Assembly: GCF_003790525.1 (NCBI RefSeq) | Contig: NZ_CP033635.1 | DNA from: Escherichia coli | Lineage (GTDB): Bacteria; Pseudomonadota; Gammaproteobacteria; Enterobacterales; Enterobacteriaceae | Reading direction: 5' to 3' (one strand) | DNA length: 64,000 bases | In this document: positions 5,184 to 42,733 of the stretch, in pieces | Layout of the letters: the number at the start of each line of letters is the position of its first letter | Position numbering within the stretch: position 1 is the stretch's first letter | Position numbers and translations under genes: made by a program | The notes under the pieces: generated by a model | Databases searched by the model: none | Seen by the model: the letters and a program-made list of their open reading frames with translations, nothing else | What the model was told of the DNA's origin: nothing

Positions 5184-7034
5184 ATGGCCTTATTACAAAT
5201 TAGTGAACCTGGTTTGAGTGCTGCGCCGCATCAGCGTCGTCTGGCGGCCGGTATCGACCTGGGCACAACCAACTCGCTGGTGGCGACAGTGCGCAGCGGT
5301 CAGGCCGAAACGTTAGCCGACCATGAAGGCCGTCACCTGCTGCCATCTGTTGTTCACTATCAACAGCAAGGGCATTCGGTGGGTTATGACGCGCGTACTA
5401 ATGCAGCGCTCGATACCGCCAACACCATTAGTTCTGTTAAACGTCTGATGGGGCGCTCGCTGGCTGATATCCAGCAACGCTATCCGCATCTGCCTTATCA
5501 ATTCCAGGCCAGCGAAAACGGCCTGCCGATGATTGAAACGGCGGCGGGGCTGCTGAACCCAGTGCGCGTTTCTGCGGACATCCTCAAAGCACTGGCGGCG
5601 CGGGCAACTGAAGCCCTGGCAGGCGAGCTGGATGGTGTCGTTATCACCGTTCCGGCGTACTTTGACGATGCCCAGCGTCAGGGCACCAAAGACGCGGCGC
5701 GTCTGGCGGGGTTGCATGTTCTGCGCTTACTTAACGAACCGACCGCTGCGGCTATTGCCTACGGGCTGGATTCCGGTCAGGAAGGCGTGATCGCTGTTTA
5801 TGACCTCGGCGGCGGTACGTTTGATATTTCCATTCTGCGCTTAAGTCGCGGCGTGTTTGAAGTGCTGGCAACCGGCGGTGATTCCGCGCTCGGCGGCGAT
5901 GATTTCGACCATCTGCTGGCGGATTACATTCGCGAGCAGGCGGGCATTCCTGATCGTAGCGATAACCGCGTTCAGCGTGAACTGCTGGATGCCGCCATTG
6001 CAGCCAAAATCGCGCTGAGTGATGCGGACTCCGTGACCGTTAACGTTGCGGGCTGGCAGGGCGAAATCAGCCGTGAACAATTCAATGAACTGATCGCGCC
6101 ACTGGTAAAACGAACCTTACTGGCTTGTCGTCGCGCGCTGAAAGATGCGGGCGTAGAAGCTGATGAAGTGCTGGAAGTGGTGATGGTGGGCGGTTCTACT
6201 CGCGTGCCGCTGGTGCGTGAACGGGTAGGCGAATTTTTCGGTCGTCCACCGTTGACTTCCATCGACCCGGATAAAGTCGTCGCTATTGGCGCGGCGATTC
6301 AGGCGGATATTTTGGTGGGTAACAAGCCGGACAGCGAAATGCTGCTGCTTGATGTGATCCCGCTGTCGCTGGGCCTCGAGACCATGGGCGGCCTGGTGGA
6401 GAAAGTGATCCCGCGTAATACCACGATTCCGGTAGCCCGCGCCCAGGATTTCACCACCTTTAAAGATGGTCAGACGGCGATGTCTATCCATGTAATGCAG
6501 GGTGAGCGCGAACTGGTGCAGGACTGCCGCTCGCTGGCGCGTTTTGCGCTGCGAGGTATTCCGGCGCTACCGGCTGGCGGCGCGCATATTCGCGTGACGT
6601 TCCAGGTCGATGCCGACGGTCTTTTGAGCGTGACGGCGATGGAGAAATCCACCGGCGTTGAGGCGTCTATCCAGGTCAAACCGTCTTACGGTCTGACCGA
6701 TAGCGAAATCGCTTCGATGATCAAAGACTCAATGAGCTATGCCGAGCAGGACGTAAAAGCCCGTATGCTGGCAGAACAAAAAGTAGAAGCGGCGCGTGTG
6801 CTGGAAAGTCTGCACGGCGCGCTGGCTGCTGATGCCGCGCTGTTAAGCGCCGCAGAACGTCAGGATATCGACGATGCTGCCGCTCACCTGAGTGAAGTGG
6901 CGCAGGGCGATGATGTTGACGCCATCGAACAAGCGATTAAAAACGTAGACAAACAAACCCAGGATTTCGCCGCTCGCCGCATGGACCAGTCGGTTCGTCG
7001 TGCGCTGAAAGGCCATTCCGTGGACGAGGTTTAA
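5184..7034 (+). CDS. hscA: Chaperone HscA (Hsc66)
   Basis: Start at [10 protein letters not shown] (ATG 5184), 616 aa Hsp70-like; ORF-track start 5130 is an extension. Confidence 0.93.
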
Positions 7035-7035
7035 T

Positions 7036-7371
7036 ATGCCAAAGATTGTTATTTTGCCTCATCAGGATCTCTGTCCTGATGGCGCTGTTCTGGAAGCTAA
7101 TAGCGGTGAAACCATTCTCGACGCAGCTCTGCGTAACGGTATCGAGATTGAACACGCCTGTGAAAAATCCTGTGCTTGCACCACCTGCCACTGCATCGTT
7201 CGCGAAGGTTTTGACTCGCTGCCGGAAAGCTCAGAGCAGGAAGACGACATGCTGGACAAAGCCTGGGGGCTGGAGCCGGAAAGCCGTTTAAGCTGCCAGG
7301 CGCGCGTTACCGACGAAGATTTAGTGGTCGAAATCCCGCGTTACACTATCAACCATGCGCGTGAGCATTAA
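7036..7371 (+). CDS. fdx: [2Fe-2S] ferredoxin Fdx
   Basis: 111-aa [19 protein letters not shown] with Cys ligands, follows hscA. Confidence 0.93.
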
Positions 7372-7382
7372 CAGAGGTTAGT

Positions 7383-7583
7383 ATGGGACTTAAGTGGACC
7401 GATAGCCGCGAAATTGGCGAAGCACTGTACGATGCGTATCCCGATATTGATCCGAAAATGGTTCGATTCACCGATATGCATCAGTGGATTTGCGCTCTGG
7501 AAGATTTCGACGACGACCCGCAGGCATCGAATGAGAAAATCCTCGAAGCGATTTTGTTGGTCTGGCTGGACGAAGCCGAGTGA
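7383..7583 (+). CDS. iscX: IscX (YfhJ)
   Basis: 66-aa acidic [27 protein letters not shown], last gene of isc operon. Confidence 0.9.
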
Positions 7584-7641
7584 ATGAACGGGCTGCCTGA
7601 GGGTAGCCCGTTTTGCTGTTAAACGAATAAGGATAACTAAA

Positions 7642-8925
7642 ATGACAGAAGCGATGAAAATTACCCTCTCTACCCAACCTGCCGATGCGCGCTGGGGAGA
7701 AAAAGCAACTTACAGCATTAATAATGATGGCATTACCCTGCACTTGAACGGAGCGGACGATCTGGGGCTGATCCAGCGTGCGGCGCGCAAGATTGACGGT
7801 CTGGGCATCAAACATGTTCAGCTAAGCGGTGAAGGCTGGGATGCGGATCGTTGCTGGGCATTCTGGCAAGGTTACAAAGCCCCGAAAGGCACGCGTAAAG
7901 TGGAGTGGCCGGATCTGGACGATGTCCAGCGCCAGGAACTGGATAACCGCCTGATGATCATCGACTGGGTGCGTGACACCATTAACGCACCGGCGGAAGA
8001 GCTGGGGCCATCGCAACTGGCACAGCGTGCTGTTGATCTGATCAGCAATGTCGCGGGCGATCGTGTGACTTACCGGATCACCAAAGGCGAAGATCTGCGT
8101 GATCAAGGTTATATGGGGCTGCACACGGTCGGACGCGGTTCAGAACGTTCTCCGGTATTGCTGGCGCTGGATTACAACCCGACTGGCGATAAAGAAGCGC
8201 CAGTGTACGCGTGCCTGGTAGGTAAAGGTATCACTTTTGACTCCGGCGGCTACAGCATCAAACAGACCGCATTTATGGACTCGATGAAGTCGGACATGGG
8301 CGGCGCGGCAACGGTTACCGGGGCGCTGGCGTTTGCCATTACGCGCGGACTGAACAAGCGCGTGAAGCTGTTCCTCTGCTGTGCGGATAACCTGATCAGC
8401 GGCAACGCGTTCAAACTGGGCGATATTATTACCTATCGCAACGGTAAAAAAGTTGAAGTGATGAACACTGATGCGGAAGGGCGTCTGGTGCTGGCCGATG
8501 GCCTGATTGATGCCAGTGCGCAGAAACCGGAACTGATCATTGATGCGGCGACCCTCACCGGGGCGGCGAAAACTGCGCTGGGTAATGATTATCACGCGCT
8601 GTTCAGTTTTGACGATGCGCTTGCCGGTCGCTTGCTGGCGAGTGCCGCGCAGGAGAATGAACCGTTCTGGCGTCTGCCGCTGGCGGAGTTCCACCGCAGC
8701 CAGCTGCCGTCTAACTTTGCCGAACTGAACAATACCGGAAGCGCGGCGTACCCGGCAGGCGCGAGCACGGCGGCGGGCTTCCTGTCGCACTTTGTTGAGA
8801 ACTATCAGCAAGGCTGGCTGCATATCGACTGCTCGGCGACTTACCGTAAAGCGCCGGTTGAACAGTGGTCTGCGGGTGCTACGGGACTTGGTGTGCGCAC
8901 GATTGCTAATCTGTTAACGGCGTAA
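7642..8925 (+). CDS. pepB: Aminopeptidase B PepB
   Basis: 427-aa [25 protein letters not shown]17 peptidase family. Confidence 0.92.
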
Positions 8926-8931
8926 ACTAAT

Positions 8932-9045
8932 ATGCCGGATGCGGCGTAAACGCCTTATCCGGACTACAAATTGCGAAAATCCAATAGATTGCGACTCCCT
9001 TGTAGGCCTGATAAGCGTGGCGCATCAGGCACTTGTGCCCCGAAC
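8932..9045. repeat. REP/BIME element between pepB and sseB
   Basis: Canonical REP palindromes gccggatgcggcgtaaacgccttatccgg and inverted copy aggcctgataagcgtggcgcatcaggc. Confidence 0.55.
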
Positions 9046-9066
9046 GTTGAATGAATTGTGGTTCTT

Positions 9067-9843
9067 ATGTCCGAAACAAAAAATGAACTTGAAGACCTGC
9101 TGGAAAAAGCAGCAACCGAACCGGCGCACCGCCCGGCCTTTTTCCGTACTCTACTGGAATCCACCGTCTGGGTGCCGGGTACGGCGGCGCAGGGCGAGGC
9201 TGTGGTTGAAGATAGCGCGCTTGATTTACAGCACTGGGAAAAAGAAGACGGCACCAGCGTCATTCCTTTTTTTACCTCGTTAGAAGCACTTCAACAGGCG
9301 GTTGAAGACGAACAGGCATTTGTCGTAATGCCCGTTCGCACATTGTTTGAGATGACCCTTGGCGAAACGCTCTTCCTTAATGCCAAACTGCCAACCGGTA
9401 AAGAATTTATGCCGCGTGAAATCAGTTTGTTGATTGGTGAAGAAGGAAATCCGCTGAGCAGCCAGGAAGTACTGGAGGGCGGTGAATCGCTGATATTATC
9501 GGAAGTCGCAGAGCCACCAGCACAAATGATTGATTCTCTCACCACCTTATTTAAAACTATTAAGCCGGTGAAGCGTGCTTTTATTTGTTCAATTAAAGAG
9601 AACGAAGAGGCACAGCCTAATTTACTTATTGGCATTGAAGCCGATGGTGATATCGAAGAAATTATTCAGGCGGCGGGAAGTGTAGCGACCGATACAATAC
9701 CTGGCGATGAACCCATCGATATTTGTCAGGTGAAAAAAGGGGAAAAAGGAATTAGCCACTTTATTACCGAACATATTGTGCCATTCTATGAACGTCGCTG
9801 GGGTGGTTTTTTGCGTGACTTTAAACAGAACCGGATAATCTAA
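9067..9843 (+). CDS. sseB: SseB, enhancer of serine sensitivity
   Basis: 258 aa from MSETKNELEDLLEKAATEP; convergent with sseA. Confidence 0.85.
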   Translation: MSETKNELEDLLEKAATEPAHRPAFFRTLLESTVWVPGTAAQGEAVVEDSALDLQHWEKEDGTSVIPFFTSLEALQQAVEDEQAFVVMPVRTLFEMTLGETLFLNAKLPTGKEFMPREISLLIGEEGNPLSSQEVLEGGESLILSEVAEPPAQMIDSLTTLFKTIKPVKRAFICSIKENEEAQPNLLIGIEADGDIEEIIQAAGSVATDTIPGDEPIDICQVKKGEKGISHFITEHIVPFYERRWGGFLRDFKQNRII

Positions 9844-26316: not shown

Positions 26317-27789
26317 ATGGTACCTGTGGTCGCGCTTGTCGGGCGCCCTAACGTAGGAAAATCCACGTTATTTAACCGTCTAACTCGCACCCGAGATGCG
26401 CTGGTTGCGGATTTCCCGGGTCTGACTCGTGACCGTAAGTACGGTCGTGCGGAAATTGAAGGCCGTGAGTTTATCTGCATTGATACCGGCGGGATTGATG
26501 GCACAGAAGACGGTGTAGAAACCCGCATGGCGGAACAGTCGCTGCTGGCGATTGAAGAAGCGGACGTCGTACTGTTTATGGTGGATGCGCGCGCGGGCCT
26601 GATGCCGGCGGATGAAGCGATTGCTAAACATCTGCGCTCCCGTGAAAAACCGACCTTCCTGGTGGCAAACAAAACTGACGGTCTGGATCCCGATCAGGCA
26701 GTGGTTGATTTCTACTCGCTTGGTTTAGGTGAAATCTACCCGATCGCCGCGTCTCACGGTCGTGGCGTATTAAGTCTGCTGGAGCACGTGCTGCTGCCGT
26801 GGATGGAAGATCTCGCACCGCAAGAAGAAGTCGACGAAGACGCCGAATACTGGGCGCAATTTGAAGCGGAAGAGAACGGCGAAGAAGAAGAGGAAGACGA
26901 CTTCGACCCGCAAAGTCTGCCGATCAAACTGGCGATTGTGGGTCGTCCGAACGTCGGTAAGTCTACACTCACTAACCGTATTCTTGGTGAAGAGCGCGTT
27001 GTTGTTTACGACATGCCTGGCACGACGCGTGACAGTATCTACATTCCAATGGAACGCGACGGACGTGAGTATGTGCTCATTGACACCGCTGGCGTACGTA
27101 AACGCGGCAAAATCACCGATGCGGTAGAGAAGTTCTCGGTAATCAAAACGTTGCAGGCCATTGAAGATGCCAACGTGGTGATGTTGGTGATTGATGCGCG
27201 TGAAGGTATTTCCGATCAGGATCTCTCCTTGCTGGGCTTTATTCTCAATAGTGGGCGCTCACTTGTGATTGTAGTGAACAAGTGGGACGGCCTGAGCCAG
27301 GAAGTGAAAGAGCAGGTGAAAGAGACGCTGGACTTCCGTCTGGGCTTTATCGATTTTGCTCGTGTGCACTTTATCTCTGCCTTGCACGGCAGTGGTGTTG
27401 GTAACTTGTTTGAATCAGTACGTGAAGCGTATGACAGCTCCACCCGTCGTGTGGGGACCTCTATGCTGACGCGCATCATGACGATGGCTGTTGAAGATCA
27501 CCAACCGCCGCTGGTACGCGGTCGTCGAGTGAAGCTGAAATATGCCCACGCCGGGGGTTATAACCCGCCGATTGTGGTGATTCACGGTAATCAGGTGAAA
27601 GACCTGCCTGATTCCTACAAGCGTTACCTGATGAACTACTTCCGCAAATCGCTGGACGTAATGGGATCGCCGATTCGTATTCAGTTCAAAGAAGGGGAAA
27701 ACCCGTATGCGAACAAGCGTAATACCCTGACGCCGACTCAGATGCGCAAGCGTAAGCGTCTGATGAAGCACATCAAGAAAAGTAAGTAA
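26317..27789 (+). CDS. der: GTPase Der (EngA)
   Basis: Start at [16 protein letters not shown] (ATG 26317), 490 aa, two GTPase domains (GRPNVGKS twice). Confidence 0.93.
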
Positions 27790-27851
27790 TCACTTATCTG
27801 GTTTCCCTTTCCACACGGAGAGGGAAACCGAATAACACGCGAGGAGTATTT

Positions 27852-28067
27852 ATGGCACTCAACTGTCCAACCTGCAAAACCCCTCTCGAACGCAATGGCG
27901 GGACTGCTCACTGTGCAACTTGTGCCAAAGATTTCACCATTCAGGCTCTTTGTCCTGACTGCCACCAGCCATTGCAGGTATTAAAAGCATGCGGTGCGGT
28001 GGATTATTTCTGCCAATATGGGCACGGTTTAATTTCTAAAACACGCGTTGAATTTGTTATTGTGTAA
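27852..28067 (+). CDS. yfgJ: YfgJ, small zinc-ribbon protein
   Basis: 71-aa ORF with two CxxC pairs (CPTC, CATC, CPDC). Confidence 0.8.
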   Translation: MALNCPTCKTPLERNGGTAHCATCAKDFTIQALCPDCHQPLQVLKACGAVDYFCQYGHGLISKTRVEFVIV

Positions 28068-28276
28068 TATCATTTAAATATATGATTTTATCATTCATAT
28101 TTATAATATGGATGATTATGCCATTTTTGTATTAGTTGAATTACTAATATGAGTGGAAAAAATCACTTATTTAAAAAATAATGATATATTTATCCTTTCT
28201 GGCATGCCTTTCTGAATAATCAGGGATACAATATTAAAGCTTATTTTTGACTTTATCATTGTCACAGGAAAAGTGC

Positions 28277-30451
28277 ATGCTGCGATGGACACGCTGTATT
28301 ATGCTAACATTTATCTCTGGGGCTGCTTTTGCGGCTCCAGAGATAAATGTTGAGCATAAAGAATCATTACCTGATTTAGGTAGTCAGGCCGCACAACAAG
28401 AAGAACAAACCAACAAGGGGAAATCGCTAAAAGAGCGTGGTGCCGATTACGTCATTAACTCCGCTACGCAAGGGTTTGAAAACCTGACACCCGAGGCGCT
28501 GGAGTCCCAGGCCAGAAGCTATCTGCAAAGTCAAATTACCTCTACGACACAATCTTATATTGAGGATACACTCTCCCCCTACGGTAAGGTTCGAACGAAT
28601 CTTTCTCTTGGCCAGGGCGGCGATCTGGATGGCAGTTCCATCGACTATTTTGTTCCCTGGTATGATAATCAAACTACTGTTTATTTCAGCCAATTTTCTG
28701 CACAACGAAAAGAAGATCGTACGATCGGGAATATTGGGCTTGGTGTAAGACATAATTTTGATAAATGGTTGTTGGGTGGAAATATATTTTATGATTATGA
28801 TTTTACCCGTGGGCATCGCCGTTTAGGTTTAGGTGTCGAAGCGTGGACTGATTATTTAAAATTCTCTGGCAACTATTATCACCCGCTTTCTGACTGGAAA
28901 GACTCCGAAGATTTCGATTTTTATGAGGAGCGTCCTGCGCGCGGCTGGGATATTCGCGCCGAAGCCTGGCTTCCCGCTTATCCGCAGCTTGGTGGTAAAA
29001 TTGTTTTCGAACAGTATTACGGTAATGAAGTCGCGCTTTTTGGCACTGATAATCTGGAGAAAGATCCCTTCGCTGTCACGCTGGGTGTGAAATACCAGCC
29101 CGTTCCGCTCATTGCTGTCGGTACAGATTTCAAAGCTGGCACTGGCGATAATACCGATCTTTCTGTTAACGCAACGCTTAATTATCAGTTTGGCGTCCCG
29201 CTCAAAGACCAGCTTGATCCTGACAAAGTGAGCGCTGCTCACTCGCTTATGGGCAGCCGTCATGACTTTGTTGAACGTAACAACTTTATTGTTCTGGAAT
29301 ACAAAGAAAAAGATCCCCTCGACGTCACTTTGTGGCTGAAAGCCGACGCCACGAATGAACATCCCGAGTGCGTGATTAAAGATACGCCTGAAGAAGCTAT
29401 CGGGCTGGAAAAATGTAAATGGACCATTAACGCGCTCATTAACCATCACTACAAAATCGTCGCTGCCTCCTGGCAGGCGAAAAACAATGCTGCACGTACG
29501 CTGGTGATGCCGGTTATCAAAGAAAACACGCTTACCGAAGGTAACAACAACCACTGGAATCTGGTGCTGCCTGCCTGGCAGTACAGTTCTGATAAAGCCG
29601 AACAAGAAAAACTCAATACCTGGCGGGTTCGTCTGGCGCTGGAAGATGAAAAAGGTAATCGACAGAATTCCGGCGTGGTGGAAATCACCGTTCAGCAGGA
29701 TCGCAAAATTGAGCTCATCGTTAACAACATCGCCGATGTACCAGATGAGAACAATCACAGTCATGAAGCCAGCGCACAGGCCGATGGTGTAGATGGTGTG
29801 GTGATGGATCTCGATATTACTGATAGCTTTGGCGACAACACTGACCGCAACGGTAATGTCTTGCCGCAGGATAATCTCAACCCGCAGTTGTTTGACGCCA
29901 ACGATAAAAAAGTGACGCTGACGAATAAACCCTGCACTACCGAGACTCCCTGTGTCTTTATCGCCAAACAAGATAAAGAAAAGGGGACCGTTACGCTCTC
30001 CAGTACATTGCCTGGCACCTTCCGTTGGAAGGCGAAAGCCGCTCCCTATGATGACAGTAACTATGTTGACGTAACGTTCCTGGGTTCTGACATCGGCGGG
30101 CTGAATGCCTTTATCTATCGTGTTGGTGCGGCTAAGCCCGTGAATCTTATCGGCAATAAAGAGCCGTTGCCTCTCAATAGCAGCTATCGCTTTGTGTTGT
30201 GGCGTGACGCTAACAAAGACGGCGTGTTCCAGCTATCAGAGAAATTCACTGAAGAGGAGATGAAACAGTATGACTATCAGTGGGAATTCACGGGACATAG
30301 CGTGAATGGCAATACCGGTGCGCAAGCCAATACCACTAACGCCGATATAGAGATCCCGGCAACGAACAAGGACGCGGCAACGAAGTTTAGTGCCCAGGTA
30401 ACCGATGGCGTGCAGGGATACGGTTTGCAGGTCAATTACAGCAAGAAATAG
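28277..30451 (+). CDS. sinH: Intimin/invasin-like inverse autotransporter (SinH-like)
   Basis: Signal peptide MLRWTRCIMLTFISGAAFA; intimin-type beta-barrel motifs (KWLLGGNIFYDYDF, ERPARGWDIRAEAWLPAYPQLGG); AGGA RBS before ATG 28277. Confidence 0.78.
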   Translation: MLRWTRCIMLTFISGAAFAAPEINVEHKESLPDLGSQAAQQEEQTNKGKSLKERGADYVINSATQGFENLTPEALESQARSYLQSQITSTTQSYIEDTLSPYGKVRTNLSLGQGGDLDGSSIDYFVPWYDNQTTVYFSQFSAQRKEDRTIGNIGLGVRHNFDKWLLGGNIFYDYDFTRGHRRLGLGVEAWTDYLKFSGNYYHPLSDWKDSEDFDFYEERPARGWDIRAEAWLPAYPQLGGKIVFEQYYGNEVALFGTDNLEKDPFAVTLGVKYQPVPLIAVGTDFKAGTGDNTDLSVNATLNYQFGVPLKDQLDPDKVSAAHSLMGSRHDFVERNNFIVLEYKEKDPLDVTLWLKADATNEHPECVIKDTPEEAIGLEKCKWTINALINHHYKIVAASWQAKNNAARTLVMPVIKENTLTEGNNNHWNLVLPAWQYSSDKAEQEKLNTWRVRLALEDEKGNRQNSGVVEITVQQDRKIELIVNNIADVPDENNHSHEASAQADGVDGVVMDLDITDSFGDNTDRNGNVLPQDNLNPQLFDANDKKVTLTNKPCTTETPCVFIAKQDKEKGTVTLSSTLPGTFRWKAKAAPYDDSNYVDVTFLGSDIGGLNAFIYRVGAAKPVNLIGNKEPLPLNSSYRFVLWRDANKDGVFQLSEKFTEEEMKQYDYQWEFTGHSVNGNTGAQANTTNADIEIPATNKDAATKFSAQVTDGVQGYGLQVNYSKK

Positions 30452-30506
30452 GATCAGCGCCATGGCTGATCGGGCCACCGCTGAATGTTAACCAAGGAGA
30501 GTGTTT

Positions 30507-31499
30507 ATGAAACCTCATATGAAACGTGGCCTGACAAGAGTCGCGCTGGCACTGATGCTGGCTGGATACTGTGCCGTGCCAGCCGCTATGGCGGAAGATG
30601 CCGCCTGGGTAGCCAGTGGGACGACCGCTGAATTCGAAGGGACCATACCCTGGCTTTATCGCGAGGGTGGGAATGCCACGATTAACTCGGATGATGCGGA
30701 TCACATCAAAGTAACGTCTGATGGTAAAGGTACTCGTCCTTCAGGTAGCGAGACGGATAAACGCCTTTACTCAGGAGATACCATCACGTTGGGGTGGGAT
30801 ATCGGCGATACCGAAGGGGATATCGACGATGGTCCAGACGGTATTGATGCGAAAACGACAGCCACTATCAAATGGTACAGTTACAGCGATAATGCGGGTG
30901 GCGGTAAAACGGAGCTGACCGCAGCGGCAGGCAAGACGAGTTATAAACTCACTGATGACGAACGTGGGCGTTATATCGGTGTTGAAATCCAGCCCATCAC
31001 CCAGACCGGTAATCCTTTCCAGGGAACATCGCTGACTCTGCTGGATATTTCAACGGCCAGCGGTGGCGGCAGCGATACGGATAATGTTGATCCTGGCCCG
31101 GTTGTGAACCAGAACCTGAAAGTTGCCATCTTCGAGAAAGGCACCAGTACCAACCTTATCGGTGGTAATACAGCCATTGCGCTTAACAAAACGTATGTGG
31201 CCAAACTGTACTCGGATGAAAACCAGAATGGTAAGTACGATGCGGGTACGGATGTGGACGTTACCGCTAACTACGACTTTGCGTGGGTCTTTAACGGTAA
31301 CAGTAAACAACTTGCGGCGGCGGGCGGTATTGCCAACGCCAGCTTCGATAACAATGACATTGTTATTCCGCAAACTAACGAACAAGCAAGAACCAGCCTT
31401 AACGGTAGTGACCGTAATGGTAAGACCGGCCTTGCAATCCCGGCAAACGGCGACGGCGTTCAGGGCTATACGCTGTCTATCATTTACAAACACCACTAA
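30507..31499 (+). CDS. sinI: Secreted protein, SinI-like
   Basis: Signal peptide MKPHMKRGLTRVALALMLAGYCAVPAAMA; C-terminal DGVQGY motif shared with the sinH-like product. Confidence 0.55.
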   Translation: MKPHMKRGLTRVALALMLAGYCAVPAAMAEDAAWVASGTTAEFEGTIPWLYREGGNATINSDDADHIKVTSDGKGTRPSGSETDKRLYSGDTITLGWDIGDTEGDIDDGPDGIDAKTTATIKWYSYSDNAGGGKTELTAAAGKTSYKLTDDERGRYIGVEIQPITQTGNPFQGTSLTLLDISTASGGGSDTDNVDPGPVVNQNLKVAIFEKGTSTNLIGGNTAIALNKTYVAKLYSDENQNGKYDAGTDVDVTANYDFAWVFNGNSKQLAAAGGIANASFDNNDIVIPQTNEQARTSLNGSDRNGKTGLAIPANGDGVQGYTLSIIYKHH

Positions 31500-31608
31500 T
31501 GCGCACAACAGCATTCCCGTATGGGAATGCTGTTTTCCGCCTGTTTTGCTTAGCGACGCGTTAAGCAAAACGGGTTGACGTTTTGTTTATCATGCTGGAG
31601 TTTTCTAC

Positions 31609-34600
31609 ATGTCGGTATGTCTGAAACCAGGAAAAATCATTGTGCTTCTGGGCATGTTGGCAGCCTTTATGCTGTCTGACTTTGCACGGGCAGGAGTGGA
31701 ATGGCAGACATATCCTGGTTCTACAGGCGAGTTTAACGGTACAGTTCCTATTGCCGATAGCGCTAGCGTACCCGTTTATCAGGGAAGCGTTCAGCTTGAT
31801 CCTGCTGCATCTCATGATGTGGCGTTTTCTGCTAAACCGAATGAATTTAGCGTTGACGATGACGCTGCTAACCTGATAGTCGCTAATCCTCAGGACAGTG
31901 AAGGCGACCAGTTTTCCACACCACCTGCGCTGCGCTGGGAAAACCAGACGCCGCCGACCGTCAGTCTGGTGTGGGCGGATGCCGCCACGCCGGATACGCC
32001 GCTCAACCCGCAGCCCATCGCCAACCGCAGCTTTTGCGCGCAAGGTCTGGCCGGGCGTTCGCTGGTGGCCTGGCCGCAGATAGATACACAACAAACCATT
32101 CCACTGCTTTACCTGCTGACCTCGACCGGTTATCCCTATGAGGGGACGGTGGCGCTGGCTGAACAGAAAGTGACGCTGAACATCGCGCCCGCACAGGGCG
32201 ATTTAATTTCGGTGAGCGCCAGTGGTTATAACGAAACGATCGCGGCGGCAAAAACCACCGTTGGTGGCACTATCACGCTGACCGTCACCACCAAAGATTG
32301 TCAGGGCAACGTCGCGGGTAATATTCCGTTTATTATCAAACGTAAAGATGCCCAAAACCGTCAGGGCGCGGTGAATAATACCGCGCCGGTGGTGCTGGGG
32401 AGTACCGAGTTAACGACGACGGCAACCGAGTATCGTGGCACATCGGATGCCAACGGTACGGCAACCATCACGGTGACCCAACCTAACGGCCCCGGCGTCA
32501 AAACGCCGCTGGTGGCGAGTATTTCCGGCATTGCGCAAACCAGCGAAACGGCGGTGATTTTTACCGTACTTACCAGCCCGGACGTGGCGCAGGCCACGAT
32601 GTGGGGCCATATGGCGGAAACGGTTGAGGCACACGGCTACACGTTCAGCAGGCCAAAACTGGCGGCGGAAGTCAGCAATGAAAATGCCACGGTCGTCGAT
32701 CACAACGAAACCTGGTCCACTTTCACCTGGAGCGGGGCAGACAGCCATTGCACCGTGCTGCCGGGCATGCGCCATTTCGGCGCACTGGCGACGGTGATTC
32801 CCTCCACGGTACAGACTGTCCTTGGCTGGCCGATGCAGGATGATTATTACTGGACATCGCTGGCGGGCACTACCGGGCAGCACCATGCAGCGGATGTCTC
32901 TAACCGTGCTGAAGCGCAAAAGCCGGATAGCACCACGTTTCTTGTAAGCTGCGTGGACAAACCCGCGCCTGACGTCGAACCGAAAATCGTCCTTACGCCA
33001 GAAAACTATGATGATACGGCACAGGCGATGAAAGCGAAGGTGGGTGAGGATGCCACGATGCGTCTGACGATCACCGACAATAAAAACAACGATCAACCGC
33101 TGGCGTATTATTACTTCTCGCTGCATCTGGATGACGGCGTTAACCGTAAGAATCAAACCGACTCCGCCTGGGAAGCCCATCCGGTGCAGATTACTGGCGG
33201 CAGTAATTTTCGCCAGGTCGACGCACATACCTATGAAGGCATGACCGACGCCAACGGCCAGGCTTCGCTCACCCTGAGCCAGCCCGGCGGCGCGGGGGTG
33301 AAAACCCATATCACGGCGAAAATGCGCAGCGATTTTAACGCCACGGATGCCAAAGATGTGATTTTTACCGTAATCACCAGCCCGGACAGCGACAAAGCGC
33401 GGATGTGGGGCCATATGCGCGGCATTATTGAGTCCGGCAGTCTGTATAAACGCCCGTTGCTGGCGGATGAAACCGAGCATGAACTGGGAACAGTGCGGGA
33501 AAACAACGAAGACTGGGCGTTGTACGATCAAAACACCAGTATGCAGGCGGAATGCGGGGTGGGTCATATACCGCGTCAGAGCTCACTGGAAAGCCTGTTT
33601 TCAGCCCATCCCGGTAACGCGATTGGCACTGAGTATGGCTGGCCTACCGCACAACAGAGCTACCTAAGCGCGGTGGAGCAAGAAACGCATTCATCGGTGA
33701 ATCTGGGGAACGGGAGCGTCGACAGCTATTCCGGCTTTAAGCAGAATTACCTCTCCTGTTCGGGTAATGAGATGGTAGCGAATGTTGAAGTCAGCACCGA
33801 TCATGATGTGTCTGTTGGCACCCAAGCGCAAGCCAAAGTGGGTGACACCATCGTAATGACCGTGCGTACGATTAACGCGCTAAATAATTCCCCGGTACCC
33901 TTTAGCGCATTCACCATTACCAAAGGTATGGGATATAACCGAGCGGGACAGGTGAGCGGGTTTGATGACCCGAGTAGCGGCTCAATCACGATGGATAACT
34001 CGCAATATGGTACATCACAGCCATCGATGGTTTATGCGGGAACAACCGATGTCCGGGGCGTGGCGACGGTCGAGATTAAGCAACCACAGGGCGTCGGGCT
34101 AAAAACGGTGCTGAGCGTAACACCGGTAAATTCCTACCTGCCGAATACCGTTAACTACAGCGTTATTTTTACTACCCCAACCAGCCCGGACGTTTCCGGC
34201 GCGCAGATGTGGGGCCATATGGATGAAACGATTACCGTTGATTCATCAACCTTTACCCGGCCTAGGCTGGCGGCGGAAATCGCCAGCCCGGACGGAACCC
34301 TGACTGAAAATAACGAAATCTGGGCGCGCGTGAGCCAGGCCAATACGTCCAGTACCAGCAAAGGCGGCTGCGGCACCAATATGCTGCCGCGTCGCTCCCA
34401 GCTAAGCGCGTTGTATAGCGCCAACAGTGGTAATGCAGTGCAAACGACGCACGGCTGGCCAACGCAGCGTCAGCCCTACTGGAGCAGCTCTCCGGCGGAT
34501 GTGACGCCGCACTTTTTCACGATAGCGCTGAACGATGGCGCACAAGCTATCGGCGGCGATACGCCGGTTTACGTCAGTTGCCTGACGACGGCGAACAAAC

Positions 34601-37600
34601 CTGCCAGCAGCATTACGCTGGAGGTGGTTGATAAAGCGCAATGGAATGCCGGGAATAACGCGGCAACGCTGAAAAAAGGCGAAACGCTACAGGTTAAGGT
34701 GACGGTAAAAGATGCACAGGGCAACGCGTTAGCGGATATGCCATTTACCCTCAGTCGCGGTGATGGCTATACCCGTAGCGGCGAAAAACATATTGCCGGT
34801 AGCGGCGATGCGCTGGTGGCGCCGGTGGTGGTCAATGGCGGGCTGGCCGATGAAACAACGTTGAATGACACCGCAACGGTGTATACCGCCATGACCGGCA
34901 GTGACGGCAGCAAAATTCTTAATATTACCCGTCCGGATACCCACGGCACCAAAACGGCGCTGACGGCAACGCTTTACTCCGATGCGACGAAAAAAGACAG
35001 CCTGGACACGATCTTTACGGTGGTTACCAGCCCGGATAGCAGCCAGGCGAAAATGTGGGGGCATATGCCGGAAACGGTGACGGCTGAGGACGGTACGGTC
35101 TTTAAACGCCCGCGGTTACTGAAGGAACTGAGCAGTCAGACTGGGCGAACATCAACGCTTGAAGACAACGAAAACTGGGCGTTGTTTAACATTAATTATG
35201 CGAGCTCTTCCACGACGTATAGTGGCTGTGGAACCAACTATATTCCGACTCAGGCCGGTCTGACGTCACTGTTTGCTAATAATGCGGGCAACACCATGAA
35301 AACCGTGCAGGGCTGGCCGGTGGCAACGCGCTATTTGTCCAACACGTCCGACAATGGCAGCATGGAGCAGCGTAACTACAAGGCGGTCGATCTCAGCAAT
35401 GGCACGAGTGCGGCAGTGTCATCAACGGCGCTGCAACTGCTGACCTGTCAGACTACACCGGTAACCACGGTGAGCCAAATCCTGCTGGAAGCGGCAGATC
35501 CGGCGACGCTGGATACCACCTATAACGTGGTAAAAGCGAAAAAAGGCGAAGAATCCGTGGTGCGCGTCACCACCAAAGATGCACAAGGCAACCTGGTGGG
35601 CAATACGGCATTTATCCTGACGCGTGCCAACAGCGTGAGTCGGGCTAATGCATCAGCGACGATGAGCGTGGGCTCGTTGACGGTGACGGATGCCTGGGGC
35701 AATACGCGAAATAATTTCCAGTCGACAAGTGAAACCATTTACGGCGTGACCGGTGCCGACGGGTCAACGACATTGACCCTGAAACAGGATAACAGTACCG
35801 GGTTAAGAACCGATCTCACGGCAAAACTGGATACGTCCAGCAGCGTCAAGGCAACGCTACCGGTGGTCTTTACCGTCGTGACCAGCCCGGATTCGCCAAA
35901 AGCGAATTTTTGGGGACATATGGCCGAAACGGTGGCGGCCTCCGATGGTTCAGTCTATAAACGCCCACTGTTGCTGGCAGAGCTGGCCAACACTGGCGGG
36001 CGACAAATCAGTTCAGAGAACGGGGAAAGCTGGGTACGATTCACCTGGAATCAGTCGACAGATCCTTCTGTAAGCGGCTGCGGCGTTGCGTATATGCCAA
36101 CGTTGGCAGGCCTGCAAGCGTTGTATGACGCTAATAGTGGTAATGCAATGAGTACGGTACAGGGATGGCCGGTAAAAGCGACCTATCTCACCAATACCCC
36201 AAGTGACACGCAAACGGGGAGCCGTTACTACAATGTGGTGCAACTGGATTCTGGCGCAGCCTCGCAAATCACGACGAACACGGGTGTACTGCAAACCTGC
36301 CGTACAACGCCGTTGACGGCTGCCAGCCAGATTACGCTGGAGGCCGCGGATCCTGCGCAATTTGTCAGCATTGACAGCACGCTTAGCGCTGTCAAAGTGC
36401 AGAAAGGCGATAGCGTGCCGATCCGCATTTCGACTAAAGATGCGCAGGGCAATTTCGTCGGCAATACGCCGTTTGCCCTGAAACACGCGAACTCGATCAA
36501 TCGTCAAAATGTGTCGTCATCGCAGAAAGTGTCGGTCACGACGGAGGTGGGTACGACGGTGGATACCAGTGCAACAACCACCCTGTATGGCGTAACCGGG
36601 CCAGACGGAACCACCACGATGACGCTCCGACAGGATGCGTCCACCGGGTTAAGAACCGACTTTTATGCCCTGTTGAACGATACCGGCGTGTCGTCGGACA
36701 CCTTGCCGGTGATCTTTACCGTCATCACCAGCCCGGATACGCCGCTGGCGGCCAACTGGGGCCATATGGCGGAAACCTTTACCAGTAGCGAAGGCGTCAC
36801 CTTCAAGCGGCCTTCCCTCAAAGCTGAACTCTCTGGCGGTACGGCCATAACGGTCAATAATGAAGTCTGGTCGCGCCTGACAGCGGCGGAGAAAGTGGAT
36901 GCCAGCAAGGCCGGGTGTGATGAGACGTATCAACCGCTGGTGAATGACATGCAGGGGTTGTATGCGGATTACCCTAACGGCCAGTTAGGATCGGTGCTCG
37001 GCTTGCCGACGTCTGCCGGGTATTGGTGGGCCTACGACATGATGATGGTTTCTGGCAACTGGACTAATCAGGCATTTTCACCTGTTAATGGTCAGTTGAT
37101 GCAGGCATCGTCCAGCTATACGGCGATCGTGATGTGTCTGGTAGAACCACATACGGAAGCAGCCACAATAGAGCTTACTTCAACGGCGCAGGACGCAGCA
37201 AAATCGGCCAGTAATGGTGGACGACCGAGCGCCGTAGCGAAGAAAGGCGAGACGATTCCGTTGACGGTGACCGTGCGTGATAGCGCCGGGAACCCGATGC
37301 CATATGCTGAGTTTACCCTCACGCGTGAAACGACGCTGGATCGCTCGAAAGCAACCGTTAACACGAGTGCGGACGACCTTACCGTAACGGCATTGGTACC
37401 CGCGAATACAAATAGTGTGTTGGCAGCAAGTGGAGCAAAACTGATCGGCACGACGGGCAGCGATGGCAAAGCGACCTTTGAGGTGAGTCAGAATGCGACG
37501 ACCGGGCTGGCGACGCCGTTAACCGTGACGCTGGCGCGTGATACGACGAAAGCCGCCACGCTGGATGTTATCTATACGGTGATCACCAGCCCGGATTCGC

Positions 37601-39684
37601 CGAGTGCGAAATTCTGGGGGCATATGCCGGACACCTTTACCAGCTCGACGGGCGTCACCTTCAAACGACCGCTGCTGAAAGCAGAAACCAGCTCAGGCTC
37701 ATCGATTAGCTCTAACGGCGAAGTTTGGTCATATATGAGCAACGCGCAAAATTTAACATCGACAGATTGCCCGCTCGAAAATCAACCGCGCAGTAATGAG
37801 CTGTTGGATTTGTATAGTGATCACCCGAACGGCACGCTAATGACCGACCTGGGGTTACCCGTATATGCAGGTAACTGGTGGGCCTATGATATGGTCATGC
37901 TGAGTGGAACGTCGTGGACTTATCAACTCATCAGCCTGAAAGACGGAACCATTACGCAGAAGGGGACAACCAGTGCGTTGATGCTTTGCCTGGCACAGCC
38001 GCATCCGGCCGGCGTCAGCGTAACATTGACGTCATCCGCACAGGATGACGCCAGAACCACCAGCAATGGCGGCCGTCCCAGCGCGTCAGCGAAAAAAGGT
38101 AACTCAATACCGATTGTGGTAACGGTAAAAGATCGTGATGGCAACCCGTTGGCGGGCGAAGCGGTGACGCTCAAACGTGATTCAGCGTTGAGCCGTTCAG
38201 GAACAATCGTGGGGACGCCAGCGAATGAAATAAAGTTGACGGAACTGACGCCCGTGTCGGCGACATTCCCGCTGGTTTCAAATGGTACACAATGGCTTGG
38301 TTTCACCGGTAGCGATGGTACGGCGACATTCAATGTTGAACAGCCTGATACTGTCGGCCTGGCAATCCCCTTTAACGCCATCCTGGCCCGTGACACGGCA
38401 AAGGTATCTACTCTGGATCTGATTTTTACCGTCCTCACCAGCCCGGATGCCGCATTAGCAACTTACTGGGGCCATATGCCGGATACCGTCACGGCGGAAA
38501 ACGGTGCTGTCTTTGAGCGCCCTAAACTGTGGAAAGAGCTGCCGTCGACATCCGGGGTAAGTCAGATAACGAATAGCAATGAAGCCTGGCCAGTGTTTAA
38601 CGCAACGCAGAGGGCTGACAGCAATCTCAGCCCTTGTGAAGCGGCGCGTCGACCATTGAGCGATGATTTAGAAGCGCTCTATACACGTTATCCAGGAAAC
38701 ACGATTACCGCGCAAATTGGCTGGCCTACGCAGTATGCATGGTGGGCGGTGGATAACTGGGAAGGGGGCAGTAATCCGCAGGCCGTCAGCCTGGTAAATG
38801 GTTCGAGAGGCCAATATAATCCCGCTCATCAGGCCTGCCTGGTTAACCCGCGTGCGAGCGTTTCCAGCGTCACGCTGACATCAACGGCGCTGGATGACGC
38901 CACACAGGCGGCGACGGTGAAAAAAGGCGACGCCGCGCCCATTGTCGTTACCGTAAAAGACAGCGCCGGGAAGCCGGTGCCGAATATCGCTTTTATCCTA
39001 AAACGCGGTGAGGCCGTGCCGCGTAACAGCGGGGCGACGCTGTATGGCGATGTGGATGCGATGGACGATTTGACTGTGCAACCTTCATCCGGTGCGGCAG
39101 TCACGTTGGCTGACAGTGGAAATACCATCGACGGAGTCACGGGAGCGGACGGTACGGCAAGCTTTACCGTTCGTCAGGATAATACGCCAGGATATAAAAC
39201 GCCGTTGACGGTGACGCTGACGGATAACGCCACCATAACGGCGACGCTGGACACGATTTTCACCGTGCCGACCAGCCCGAATGTCGCCACGGCGTATTTC
39301 TGGGGTCATATGGCGGATACCGCCACGGTAAGTGGCAAGACGCTGCATCGCCCGCTATTAAAATCGGAGTTGCCGTCAGGCGCTACCGCAGCAGCAACGC
39401 CTGATGTAAATAATGAAACCTGGGCACTGGCGCATGTTATGGATTCCTCTAAATGGGATGTCGCGCAGCAGTGTGGCAGTATGAATAACGTGCCGAGCAG
39501 TGCCGAATTACAAACATTACACTCCGGCTTTAGCACATTGGGATGGCCGTCCTCGATAAGCTTCCCGTATTTATCTACTGATAAGGCTGGGTCGTTCTAT
39601 TGTGGTGTTGATGAAGGCTCTGGCAGTCTCAACTGTGGCATTCAGCCTGCGAAAACGCCGGGGTTTGCAACCTGCTTCCAGTAA
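31609..39684 (+). CDS. ratA: Giant repeat-containing surface protein, RatA-like (2691 aa)
   Basis: Single ORF with signal peptide and nine ~270-aa repeats each carrying VIFTVxTSPD...WGHM; position next to sinI matches Salmonella ratA. Confidence 0.7.
32280..39684 (+). repeat. Nine tandem in-frame coding repeats of about 0.80-0.86 kb inside the ratA-like gene
   Basis: ACCAGCCCGGA(C/T) recurs at about 32572, 33380, 34183, 35028, 35885, 36731, 37585, 38443, 39271. Confidence 0.8.
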
Positions 39685-39737
39685 CCTTATCCACCTTGTC
39701 AATATGAGGTTCCGAAAGCCTGATACGCAACGCGCTA

Positions 39738-41135
<1,398 letters not shown>

Positions 41136-41266
41136 TTATTCAGTCGATAGTAACCCGCCCTCCGGGGATAGCAAGCATTTTTTGCAAAAAGGGGTAGATG
41201 CAATCGGTTACGCTCTGTATAATGCCGCGGCAATATTTATTAACCACTCTGGTCGAGATATTGCCC

Positions 41267-42733
41267 ATGCTACGTATCGCTAAAGAAGCTCTGACGTTTG
41301 ACGACGTTCTCCTCGTTCCTGCTCATTCTACCGTTCTGCCGAATACTGCTGACCTCAGCACCCAGCTGACGAAAACTATTCGTCTGAATATCCCTATGCT
41401 TTCCGCAGCAATGGATACCGTAACGGAAGCGCGCCTGGCTATTGCTCTGGCTCAGGAAGGCGGTATCGGCTTTATCCACAAAAACATGTCCATTGAACGC
41501 CAGGCAGAAGAAGTTCGCCGTGTGAAAAAACACGAATCTGGCGTGGTAACTGATCCGCAGACCGTGCTGCCGACAACCACCCTGCGTGAAGTGAAAGAAC
41601 TGACCGAGCGTAACGGCTTTGCGGGCTACCCGGTGGTTACCGAAGAAAACGAACTGGTCGGCATCATCACCGGTCGTGACGTGCGTTTTGTGACCGATCT
41701 GAATCAACCGGTTAGCGTTTACATGACGCCGAAAGAGCGTCTGGTAACCGTGCGTGAAGGCGAAGCCCGTGAAGTGGTGCTGGCAAAAATGCACGAAAAA
41801 CGCGTTGAAAAGGCGCTGGTGGTTGATGACGAATTCCACCTGATCGGCATGATCACTGTGAAGGACTTCCAGAAAGCGGAACGTAAACCGAACGCGTGTA
41901 AAGACGAACAAGGCCGTCTGCGTGTAGGTGCAGCGGTTGGCGCGGGTGCGGGTAACGAAGAGCGTGTTGATGCGCTGGTTGCCGCAGGCGTTGACGTTCT
42001 GCTGATCGACTCCTCTCACGGTCACTCTGAAGGTGTTCTGCAGCGTATCCGTGAAACTCGCGCTAAATATCCTGACCTGCAAATCATCGGCGGCAACGTG
42101 GCAACAGCAGCAGGTGCCCGCGCGCTGGCAGAAGCCGGTTGCAGTGCCGTTAAAGTGGGTATCGGCCCTGGTTCTATTTGTACTACCCGCATTGTTACTG
42201 GCGTCGGTGTTCCGCAGATCACCGCCGTTGCTGACGCAGTAGAAGCCCTGGAAGGCACCGGAATTCCGGTTATCGCTGACGGTGGTATTCGTTTCTCCGG
42301 CGACATCGCCAAAGCTATCGCCGCTGGCGCAAGCGCGGTAATGGTGGGTTCCATGCTGGCAGGTACTGAAGAATCTCCGGGTGAAATTGAACTCTACCAG
42401 GGCCGTTCTTACAAATCTTACCGTGGTATGGGTTCCCTGGGCGCGATGTCCAAAGGTTCTTCTGACCGTTACTTCCAGAGCGACAACGCTGCCGACAAAC
42501 TGGTGCCGGAAGGTATCGAAGGTCGCGTGGCCTATAAAGGTCGCCTGAAAGAGATCATTCACCAGCAGATGGGCGGCCTGCGCTCCTGTATGGGCCTGAC
42601 CGGCTGTGGTACTATCGACGAACTGCGTACTAAAGCGGAGTTTGTACGTATCAGCGGTGCGGGCATTCAGGAAAGCCACGTTCACGACGTGACCATTACT
42701 AAAGAGTCCCCGAACTACCGTCTGGGCTCCTGA
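41267..42733 (+). CDS. guaB: IMP dehydrogenase
   Basis: Start at [21 protein letters not shown] (ATG 41267), 488 aa. Confidence 0.95.

Follow-up and report, generated by a model that had tools for sequence, protein, structure and literature searches.

A nine-module RatA-like protein encoded beside sinH and sinI in Escherichia coli: a putative Ig and lectin-like adhesin fibre and the rare loss of its modules

Introduction

How could a giant repeat protein without a membrane anchor of its own reach the bacterial surface, and how firmly does its gene hold on to its number of repeats? Both questions are raised by the ratA-like gene of the sinH-sinI-ratA cluster in a 64,000-nucleotide stretch of Escherichia coli DNA (RefSeq assembly GCF_003790525.1, contig NZ_CP033635.1; hereafter the window), a single open reading frame (ORF) of 2691 amino acids (aa) plus stop codon in the ORF list and its translation. 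Our best explanation, which as a whole we hold to be likely, is that this RatA-like protein (hereafter RatA) consists of nine modules, each an immunoglobulin (Ig)-like domain followed by a lectin-like domain, and forms a Sec-exported adhesin fibre that is externalised with the help of SinH, while its module number changes rarely, through in-register deletions at short microhomologies within motif codons.

The ORF is 100% identical at the DNA level to that of E. coli SMS-3-5 (NC_010498.1), and its product, WP_000109693.1, is labelled "adhesion domain-containing protein" in RefSeq and "DUF823 domain-containing adhesin" in other genomes. The RatA-like identity proposed by an earlier, sequence-only reading of the window is borne out by a full-length match to the NCBIfam equivalog NF011844, "RatA-like protein" (5562 bits against a cutoff of 3870; residues 3-2691 on profile positions 1-2683 of 2683), whereas the profiles of Salmonella RatA (NF011843) and RatB (NF011842), which NCBIfam describes as "DUF823/DUF824 repeat adhesin", stay below their curated cutoffs (2064 versus 3700 and 2255 versus 4079). 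Given this full-length match and these descriptions, the protein family and its repeat architecture are already named and catalogued, as part of a known virulence-associated cluster. What is new here lies in the microhomology-guided loss of modules and in an N-terminal module that RatA and SinI may have in common.

In the RefSeq annotation, ratA lies 3' of sinH and sinI on the same strand and is convergent with the adjoining xseA, and the whole cluster sits between der and guaBA. The Salmonella CS54 island has the order xseA-shdA-ratB-ratA-sinI-sinH, and the E. coli cluster is its counterpart. Every related locus with enough flanking sequence carries sinH and then sinI directly upstream of rat. 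Extraintestinal pathogenic E. coli commonly carry the cluster, for which a recent paper on E. coli uses the name "ila"; RatA is by far its largest product, and work is under way on SinH as an antigen for vaccines. Deletion of ila-cluster genes reportedly attenuates uropathogenic E. coli in mouse urinary-tract infection (Shea 2022, as cited by others).

Nine modules of Ig-like and adhesion domains

The nine tandem two-domain modules that were read from the sequence alone are recovered by independent profiles. In Pfam searches, BIg21 (PF05688) and InvE_AD (PF05689) alternate along the protein with E-values of 1e-19 to 1e-35, and hidden Markov models (HMMs) built from the units resolve a strict series of nine Ig-adhesion domain pairs from aa 217 to the last residue, with the domain string IAIAIAIAIAIAIAIAIA (I, Ig domain; A, adhesion domain). 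The first Ig domain thus begins near aa 217 (nucleotide 32257), and the start at 32280 given earlier falls about eight codons inside it. A self-comparison of RatA by BLASTP returned only the identity high-scoring segment pair, so the units were cut by motif anchors instead; cut in this way, all nine align end to end with invariant TSP, WGHM, RP.L..E, E.W, Cys, P, G.P and a second Cys. Tandem Repeats Finder, with a maximum period of 500, reported no repeat in 30000-42000; the module period is 268-286 aa (804-858 nucleotides, nt), and the units are also too divergent, with 24-43% protein identity to one another in the window RatA and 24-55% within any one protein examined. This nine-fold modular pattern is far beyond chance.

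Some of the motifs earlier taken as invariant are indeed so, and others hold for part of the units. WGHM is found in all nine modules, constantly 10 residues past TSP[DN], and two Cys occur in every adhesion domain, with four in the last. TSPD occurs in eight of nine (aa 322, 590, 858, 1140, 1425, 1707, 1993 and 2277), its place being taken by TSPN at aa 2555. The G[WL]P motif is present in all nine, as GWP in seven and GLP in two, and is followed by YW in only about half of the units. The literal KKGE is limited to three units, against eight with K.G[EDN]. TSPD...WGHM marks where each adhesion domain starts, immediately after the Ig domain, a feature in common with InvE.

The folds of the modules were examined on unit 4, which matches the PDB chain 5n40 (Yersinia pseudotuberculosis InvE) in a sequence search with E 4.9e-21, the alignment containing '...ITSPDSAQASMWGNM...'. 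An AlphaFold2 model of Ig4-AD4-Ig5, for which 24 in-register segments of three alleles were aligned (pLDDT 91, pTM 0.83), had the same 5n40 as its top PDB match in Foldseek (E 2e-15, 263 columns, 2.9 Å). In structural comparison, 5n40 scored 16.5 (131 residues, 1.7 Å, 37% identity), with lower scores for intimin 1f02 (6.9), the macrophage mannose receptor carbohydrate-recognition domain (CRD) 4 (6.6) and invasin 1cwv (6.6); other families with a C-type-lectin fold, namely FGE/EgtB-type domains, TvpA and Mtd, scored 5.8-7.8, and dozens of classical C-type lectins and natural-killer-receptor C-type-lectin-like domains (CTLDs) scored about 5. The modelled adhesion domain is thus predicted to have a CTLD fold of the InvE/invasin/intimin type, in agreement with the initial suggestion of Ig-like and lectin-like folds akin to the intimin/invasin C-terminal domain.

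Whether such domains could be true Ca2+-dependent, carbohydrate-binding lectins is a separate matter, and we regard this as very unlikely. The Ca2+/sugar motifs EPN and WND are missing from the whole of RatA, its sole QPD (aa 2245) lies within Ig domain 8, and the adhesion domain is only 6-14% identical to classical CRDs. Intimin and invasin use this same fold to bind proteins, and InvE, the nearest relative with a solved structure, reportedly lacks the Ca2+/sugar motifs likewise. With EPN and WND absent and the only QPD in an Ig domain, the RatA modules would be expected, by analogy with intimin and invasin, to bind protein and to have no lectin activity. For the design of experiments, RatA can be treated as a series of InvE-type Ig and lectin-like pairs, with individually conserved modules and a more variable C-terminal half.

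Old modules in a stable array

At the DNA level the repeats are far from uniform. Codon-aligned units are 39-52% identical, the longest exact word common to any two is 20 nt, and unit-against-unit BLASTN finds only patches of 65-135 nt with 70-81% identity, all on the codons of IFTV.TSPD...WGHM. With so little similarity, neither collapse during assembly nor efficient homologous recombination is to be expected, contrary to the earlier expectation that the ~0.84-kb repeats would collapse in short-read assemblies. Nor is there reason to think that the nine-fold repeat of the window was itself collapsed or expanded by mis-assembly, which is extremely improbable: besides the low identity and short exact words of the units, an identical sequence stands in the finished SMS-3-5 genome, and the same nine modules occur in the same order in 90% and 66% identical alleles from other complete genomes. 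For genome work this means that ratA, although a "repeat" gene, assembles correctly from short reads, and that, where an isolate has a shorter ratA, genuine deletion or truncation is a more likely cause than repeat collapse.

The array is also stable over time. Nine modules dominate the database, with clusters of 949, 1510, 467, 2071, 2091 and 4065 sequences all being nine-module proteins. The window allele is ~90% identical to the ST131/EC958 allele and ~66% identical to that of strain HM670, and nine modules are retained across E. coli alleles only 66% identical. Since the modules are non-repetitive as DNA, the array is stable, as the earlier reading had it. Each module best matches the module at the same position of another allele, even between alleles 66% identical overall, and identity among modules within a protein is 24-55%. 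The modules are therefore old, each maintained on its own, and they show no trace of homogenisation. Alleles differ most in the C-terminal part that begins with AD4 (AD4 to AD9, 35014-39681), a pattern suggestive of diversifying selection or of recombination in this distal half of RatA. Between SMS-3-5 and HM670, the N-terminal domain and modules 1-4 are 66-83% identical and AD5 to AD8 only 46-59%.

Across species the number of modules does vary. Orthologous loci of other species, all arranged as sinH-sinI-rat-xseA, encode 6, 7, 8, 9 or 10 modules, the ten-module case being from Enterobacteriaceae MGYG-HGUT-00110 (L022, 10001-18994), and 11 modules were seen in one metagenomic protein (P0052, 3264 aa, Logan). 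Modules gained or lost between species lie in the middle of the array, at positions 5-8. The extra modules of the 10- and 11-module orthologues are 33-55% identical to others, as divergent as all the rest, and the expansions are therefore old.

Rare loss of single modules

Within E. coli, rare variants have exactly one period (268-287 aa) missing in register, with intact N- and C-termini and 97-100% identity to a nine-module parent. In 11 cases the deletion junction coincides with the TSPD/WGHM motif or adjoins it; of the two further junctions, that of P0040 is in the NNE.W region and that of P0054 close to GWP. The deletions involve every pair of adjacent modules from 2/3 to 8/9 save 5/6. One variant has lost two modules, and some carry smaller in-frame deletions. 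The clearest case is P0037, which differs from the EC958 allele by an exact loss of 804 nt in an otherwise unchanged gene, with a 16-nt microhomology over the M-W-G-H-M codons at its junction; among the deletion variants, junction microhomologies are 11-17 nt long. Neighbouring modules have exact in-register identities of 9-17 nt at the longest, placed at -30 nt for TSPD, at 0 for WGHM and a little downstream, and junctions made in silico at these sites give peptides that are found in the variant proteins.

These eight-module variants could instead be assembly artefacts, with the module number of E. coli effectively fixed at nine. All of them are singleton clusters, and four tested deletion junctions had no occurrence in 5426 complete E. 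coli genomes, a null result that counts against genuine module loss as well as marking the variants as rare. Nevertheless, we consider an artefact rather unlikely. The P0037 allele comes from three samples, three assembly pipelines and two genotypes that are 2 flanking single-nucleotide polymorphisms apart, and several deletion variants were met either in NCBI as well as Logan assemblies or with two separate NCBI accessions. Moreover, every junction coincides exactly with a site of longest in-register identity as predicted, and microhomologies of 11-17 nt are, as general knowledge, shorter than the usual k-mer sizes of de Bruijn-graph assemblers (the assembler settings of these records were not checked). 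The earlier proposal that the repeats could drive copy-number variation is upheld only weakly, by rare one-module losses and differences between species, and with a different mechanism, microhomology taking the place of efficient homologous recombination.

Export of RatA and the part of SinH

No IAT_beta barrel (PF11924) or anchor domain was found by Pfam in aa 1-1164 and 1492-2691 of RatA, and the gap between these segments is filled by modules 4 and 5; the beta-barrel of the cluster resides in the neighbouring SinH. Outside the repeats, aa 1-216 hold a segment resembling a signal peptide and, after it, a conserved N-terminal domain. The former reads as a probable Sec signal peptide, apparently without a lipobox. 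The N-terminal domain has no Pfam match (aa 1-218), yet it retains ~50 invariant columns in an alignment of 11 diverse homologues (the window RatA and 10 others), is 46-69% identical across Rat-type homologues, and in a word-indexed search had homologues only among Rat-type proteins or fragments. In our proposed mechanism, Sec would export RatA, the Cys pair of each lectin-like domain would be oxidised in the periplasm, and the protein would then be delivered to or held at the cell surface through SinH and/or SinI, in a two-partner-like manner, where it could bind proteins as a long, multivalent fibre and so serve as an adhesin during colonisation of the gut and urinary tract. Such a role for SinH has been put forward before: Heinz et al. 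2016, reasoning from ZirT/ZirS-ZirU, proposed that SinH-type inverse autotransporters have Rat-like proteins as their substrates, and Goh et al. 2019 asked likewise about IatB (= SinH) of SMS-3-5.

Further hints of a functional link come from SinI. A motif following the signal peptide is common to RatA (aa 32-47, 31702-31749) and to the mature N-terminus of SinI (30600-30650; SinI-family proteins P0167-P0285). Its form is W-Q-x7-[ST]T-x-[AE]-[IF]-N-G-T-[VP]-P in the Rat family and W-x5-7-[ST][TG]-x-[AFTI]-[IF]-[NQEK]-G-[TN]-x-P in the SinI family, which can be joined as W-x5-7-[ST][TG]-x-[AFI]-[IF]-[NQE]-G-T-[VIP]-P, then D-x-EGD, the later D-x-E-G-D motif being found in both families. In a profile-profile comparison by hhalign, the alignment of the mature N-termini of RatA and SinI spans 83 columns (E 0.001) and scores 30.1, compared with 11.7 +/- 1.8 and a maximum of 19.0 in 150 column shuffles. 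When an HMM of the SinI N-terminus was run against 2574 six-frame ORFs, the RatA ORFs ranked next after all SinI ORFs, with a score that is partly due to weak Ig-domain similarity, and BLASTP of the RatA N-terminus against SinI gave a marginal match that is partly driven by the signal peptide. Since the hhalign probability is only 21%, a kinship of the two N-terminal modules is suggestive and not proven. Pfam gives no significant match in SinI. Its C-terminal ~120 aa share homology with the domain that forms the C-terminal tip of SinH (98.8% probability in hhalign, with NCBIfam cross-matches). With a Rat-like N-terminus and a SinH-like tip, SinI looks like a hybrid of Rat-like head and SinH-like tail. 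It is tempting, though rather doubtful, to go further and cast SinI as adaptor and RatA as cargo, with the N-terminal module as an address tag for SinH export or a docking tether and with fibre length reset by module loss. If true, this docking piece would tether an (Ig-lectin)x9 fibre of ~2700 aa to the SinH stalk.

The main rival to SinH-assisted export is type II secretion. RatA might be exported independently of SinH by this or another route, the linkage to sinH-sinI reflecting co-function and not translocation. There is a precedent in Acinetobacter InvL, an invasin-like adhesin that is secreted by the type II system (PMC9245377); moreover, a 12-stranded inverse-autotransporter barrel would be narrow for a 2700-aa chain of disulfide-bonded domains (PMC4943183). 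The N-terminal domain of RatA bears no similarity to the SinH passenger (hhalign score 14.4, at background; nothing by BLASTP), and two tandem hairpins (dG -23.6 kcal/mol, z -5.2, and -24.2 kcal/mol) stand in the 109-nt spacer between sinI and ratA. Their stems are kept with compensatory changes in the loci of Escherichia, Citrobacter and Superficieibacter, and Rfam had no match to the spacer. Against independent export stand the strictly conserved sinH-sinI-rat order across genera, the N-terminal motif common to RatA and SinI, and the published hypothesis, which favours SinH. On balance we think export without SinH unlikely.

SinH-assisted export of RatA has its own difficulties, and the unrelated SinH passenger and the spacer hairpins are among them. 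A review reports co-transcription for sinH and sinI only, and with the hairpins this means that expression of ratA may be uncoupled from them. In several strains ratA is truncated or a sinH::ratA deletion is seen, and the homologues include many RatA proteins that are cut short; the gene is dispensable in some lineages. Finally, the literature searched yielded no direct study of the location, secretion route or ligand of RatA.

Comparison with known systems

Compared with the E. coli and E. albertii RatA-like proteins of NF011844, which have the same nine BIg21 and InvE_AD pairs, N-terminal domain and sinH-sinI-ratA-xseA position, the window gene differs in nothing material and is the SMS-3-5 allele. 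Salmonella RatA (1860 aa) and RatB (2435 aa) have the same domain types, N-terminal domain and neighbourhood, with an estimated ~6 and ~8 modules going by profile length, in contrast to nine in E. coli; Salmonella has two rat genes plus shdA. RatB of Salmonella has reportedly been linked to caecal colonisation (Kingsley 2003).

InvE of Y. pseudotuberculosis, as an inverse autotransporter, is expected to have its own beta-barrel, unlike RatA. The match to the adhesion domain covers residues 172-317 of 352 in the InvE fragment of known structure, at its C-terminal end, whereas RatA repeats the Ig and adhesion domains nine times. Relative to intimin and invasin (type Ve), with which it has a sequence identity of 11-12%, RatA has neither an IAT beta-barrel nor the periplasmic domain, and its lectin-like domains are internal and repeated, one after every Ig domain, instead of forming a single C-terminal cap. 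The Salmonella ZirT-ZirS/ZirU system is closer in layout, since there too a barrel-less, Ig-containing protein with a signal peptide is encoded downstream of an inverse autotransporter, on the same strand in the case of RatA. However, ZirS and ZirU resemble the ZirT passenger, while RatA does not resemble that of SinH; it is SinI that resembles SinH. RatA is also roughly ten times larger than ZirS/ZirU, and its secretion is proposed by analogy.

Features of the locus

The features discussed here are collected in Table 1. Scans of 27700-39800 for promoter and terminator consensus sequences gave counts at the level of shuffled sequence.

Table 1. Positions of the sinH-sinI-ratA features in the window
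Feature	Position	Strand	Evidence
sinH (iatB), intimin-like inverse autotransporter, candidate translocator/anchor	28277..30451	+	NCBIfam NF033423 1483 bits, RefSeq
sinI, barrel-less autotransporter-associated protein	30507..31499	+	NCBIfam NF040711
Two tandem hairpins in sinI-ratA spacer, possible terminator/attenuator	31507-31534 and 31539-31575	+	Folding energy
ratA-like coding sequence	31609..39684	+	ORF list, RefSeq WP_000109693.1, NF011844
Predicted Sec signal peptide (aa 1-28)	31609..31692	+	Read from translation: basic n-region, hydrophobic core, A-x-A site
Rat-family N-terminal domain (aa 29-216)	31693..32256	+	Alignment of 11 diverse homologues
Module 1 (BIg21 aa 219-321, InvE_AD aa 324-449)	32218..33021	+	Pfam, unit alignment
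Module 2 (BIg21 483-589, InvE_AD 592-718)	33022..33825	+	Pfam, unit alignment
Module 3 (BIg21 745-856, InvE_AD 860-992)	33826..34671	+	Pfam, unit alignment
Module 4 (BIg21 1024-1139, InvE_AD from 1142), modelled unit	34672..35526	+	Pfam, unit alignment, structure model
Module 5	35527..36372	+	Unit alignment, own HMMs; adhesion-domain end seen in Pfam
Module 6	36373..37230	+	Unit alignment, Pfam, own HMMs
Module 7	37231..38082	+	Unit alignment, Pfam, own HMMs
Module 8	38083..38916	+	Unit alignment, Pfam, own HMMs
Module 9 (TSPN for TSPD, four Cys, reaches C-terminus)	38917..39681	+	Motifs, unit alignment, Pfam, own HMMs
Hairpin and U-run past ratA stop, before convergent xseA	39714..39752	+	dG -19 kcal/mol, z -3.3

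Within the N-terminal region of RatA, the only Cys of the mature protein outside the adhesion domains are Cys143 (32035-32037), which lies in the invariant FC.Q motif of the N-terminal domain, and Cys231 (32299-32301), which lies in Ig domain 1 (KDC.G), is conserved in the family and is absent from Ig2 to Ig9. These two Cys may form an inter-domain disulfide. Residues 36-160 (31714-32088) also gave marginal PDB sequence matches to actinobacterial DsbA/thioredoxin-like proteins; at E 0.026-0.19 only, a kinship with this family was set aside as probable chance.

Decay of the cluster can be seen in individual strains. In HM670 (L002, 7793-8769), sinI is annotated as frameshifted, although sinH is intact and ratA still encodes nine modules (2683 aa). 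E. coli WL297 (L003, NZ_CP128613.1) has a deletion of sinI and almost all of ratA at 6553-9479, in which sinH, extended to 2451 nt, abuts the last ~486 nt of ratA. A 3119-nt contig labelled "MAG: Collinsella sp." (L011) carries a sinH-sinI-ratA fragment 68% identical to the query; almost certainly, enterobacterial DNA was binned there by contamination, Collinsella being an actinobacterium.

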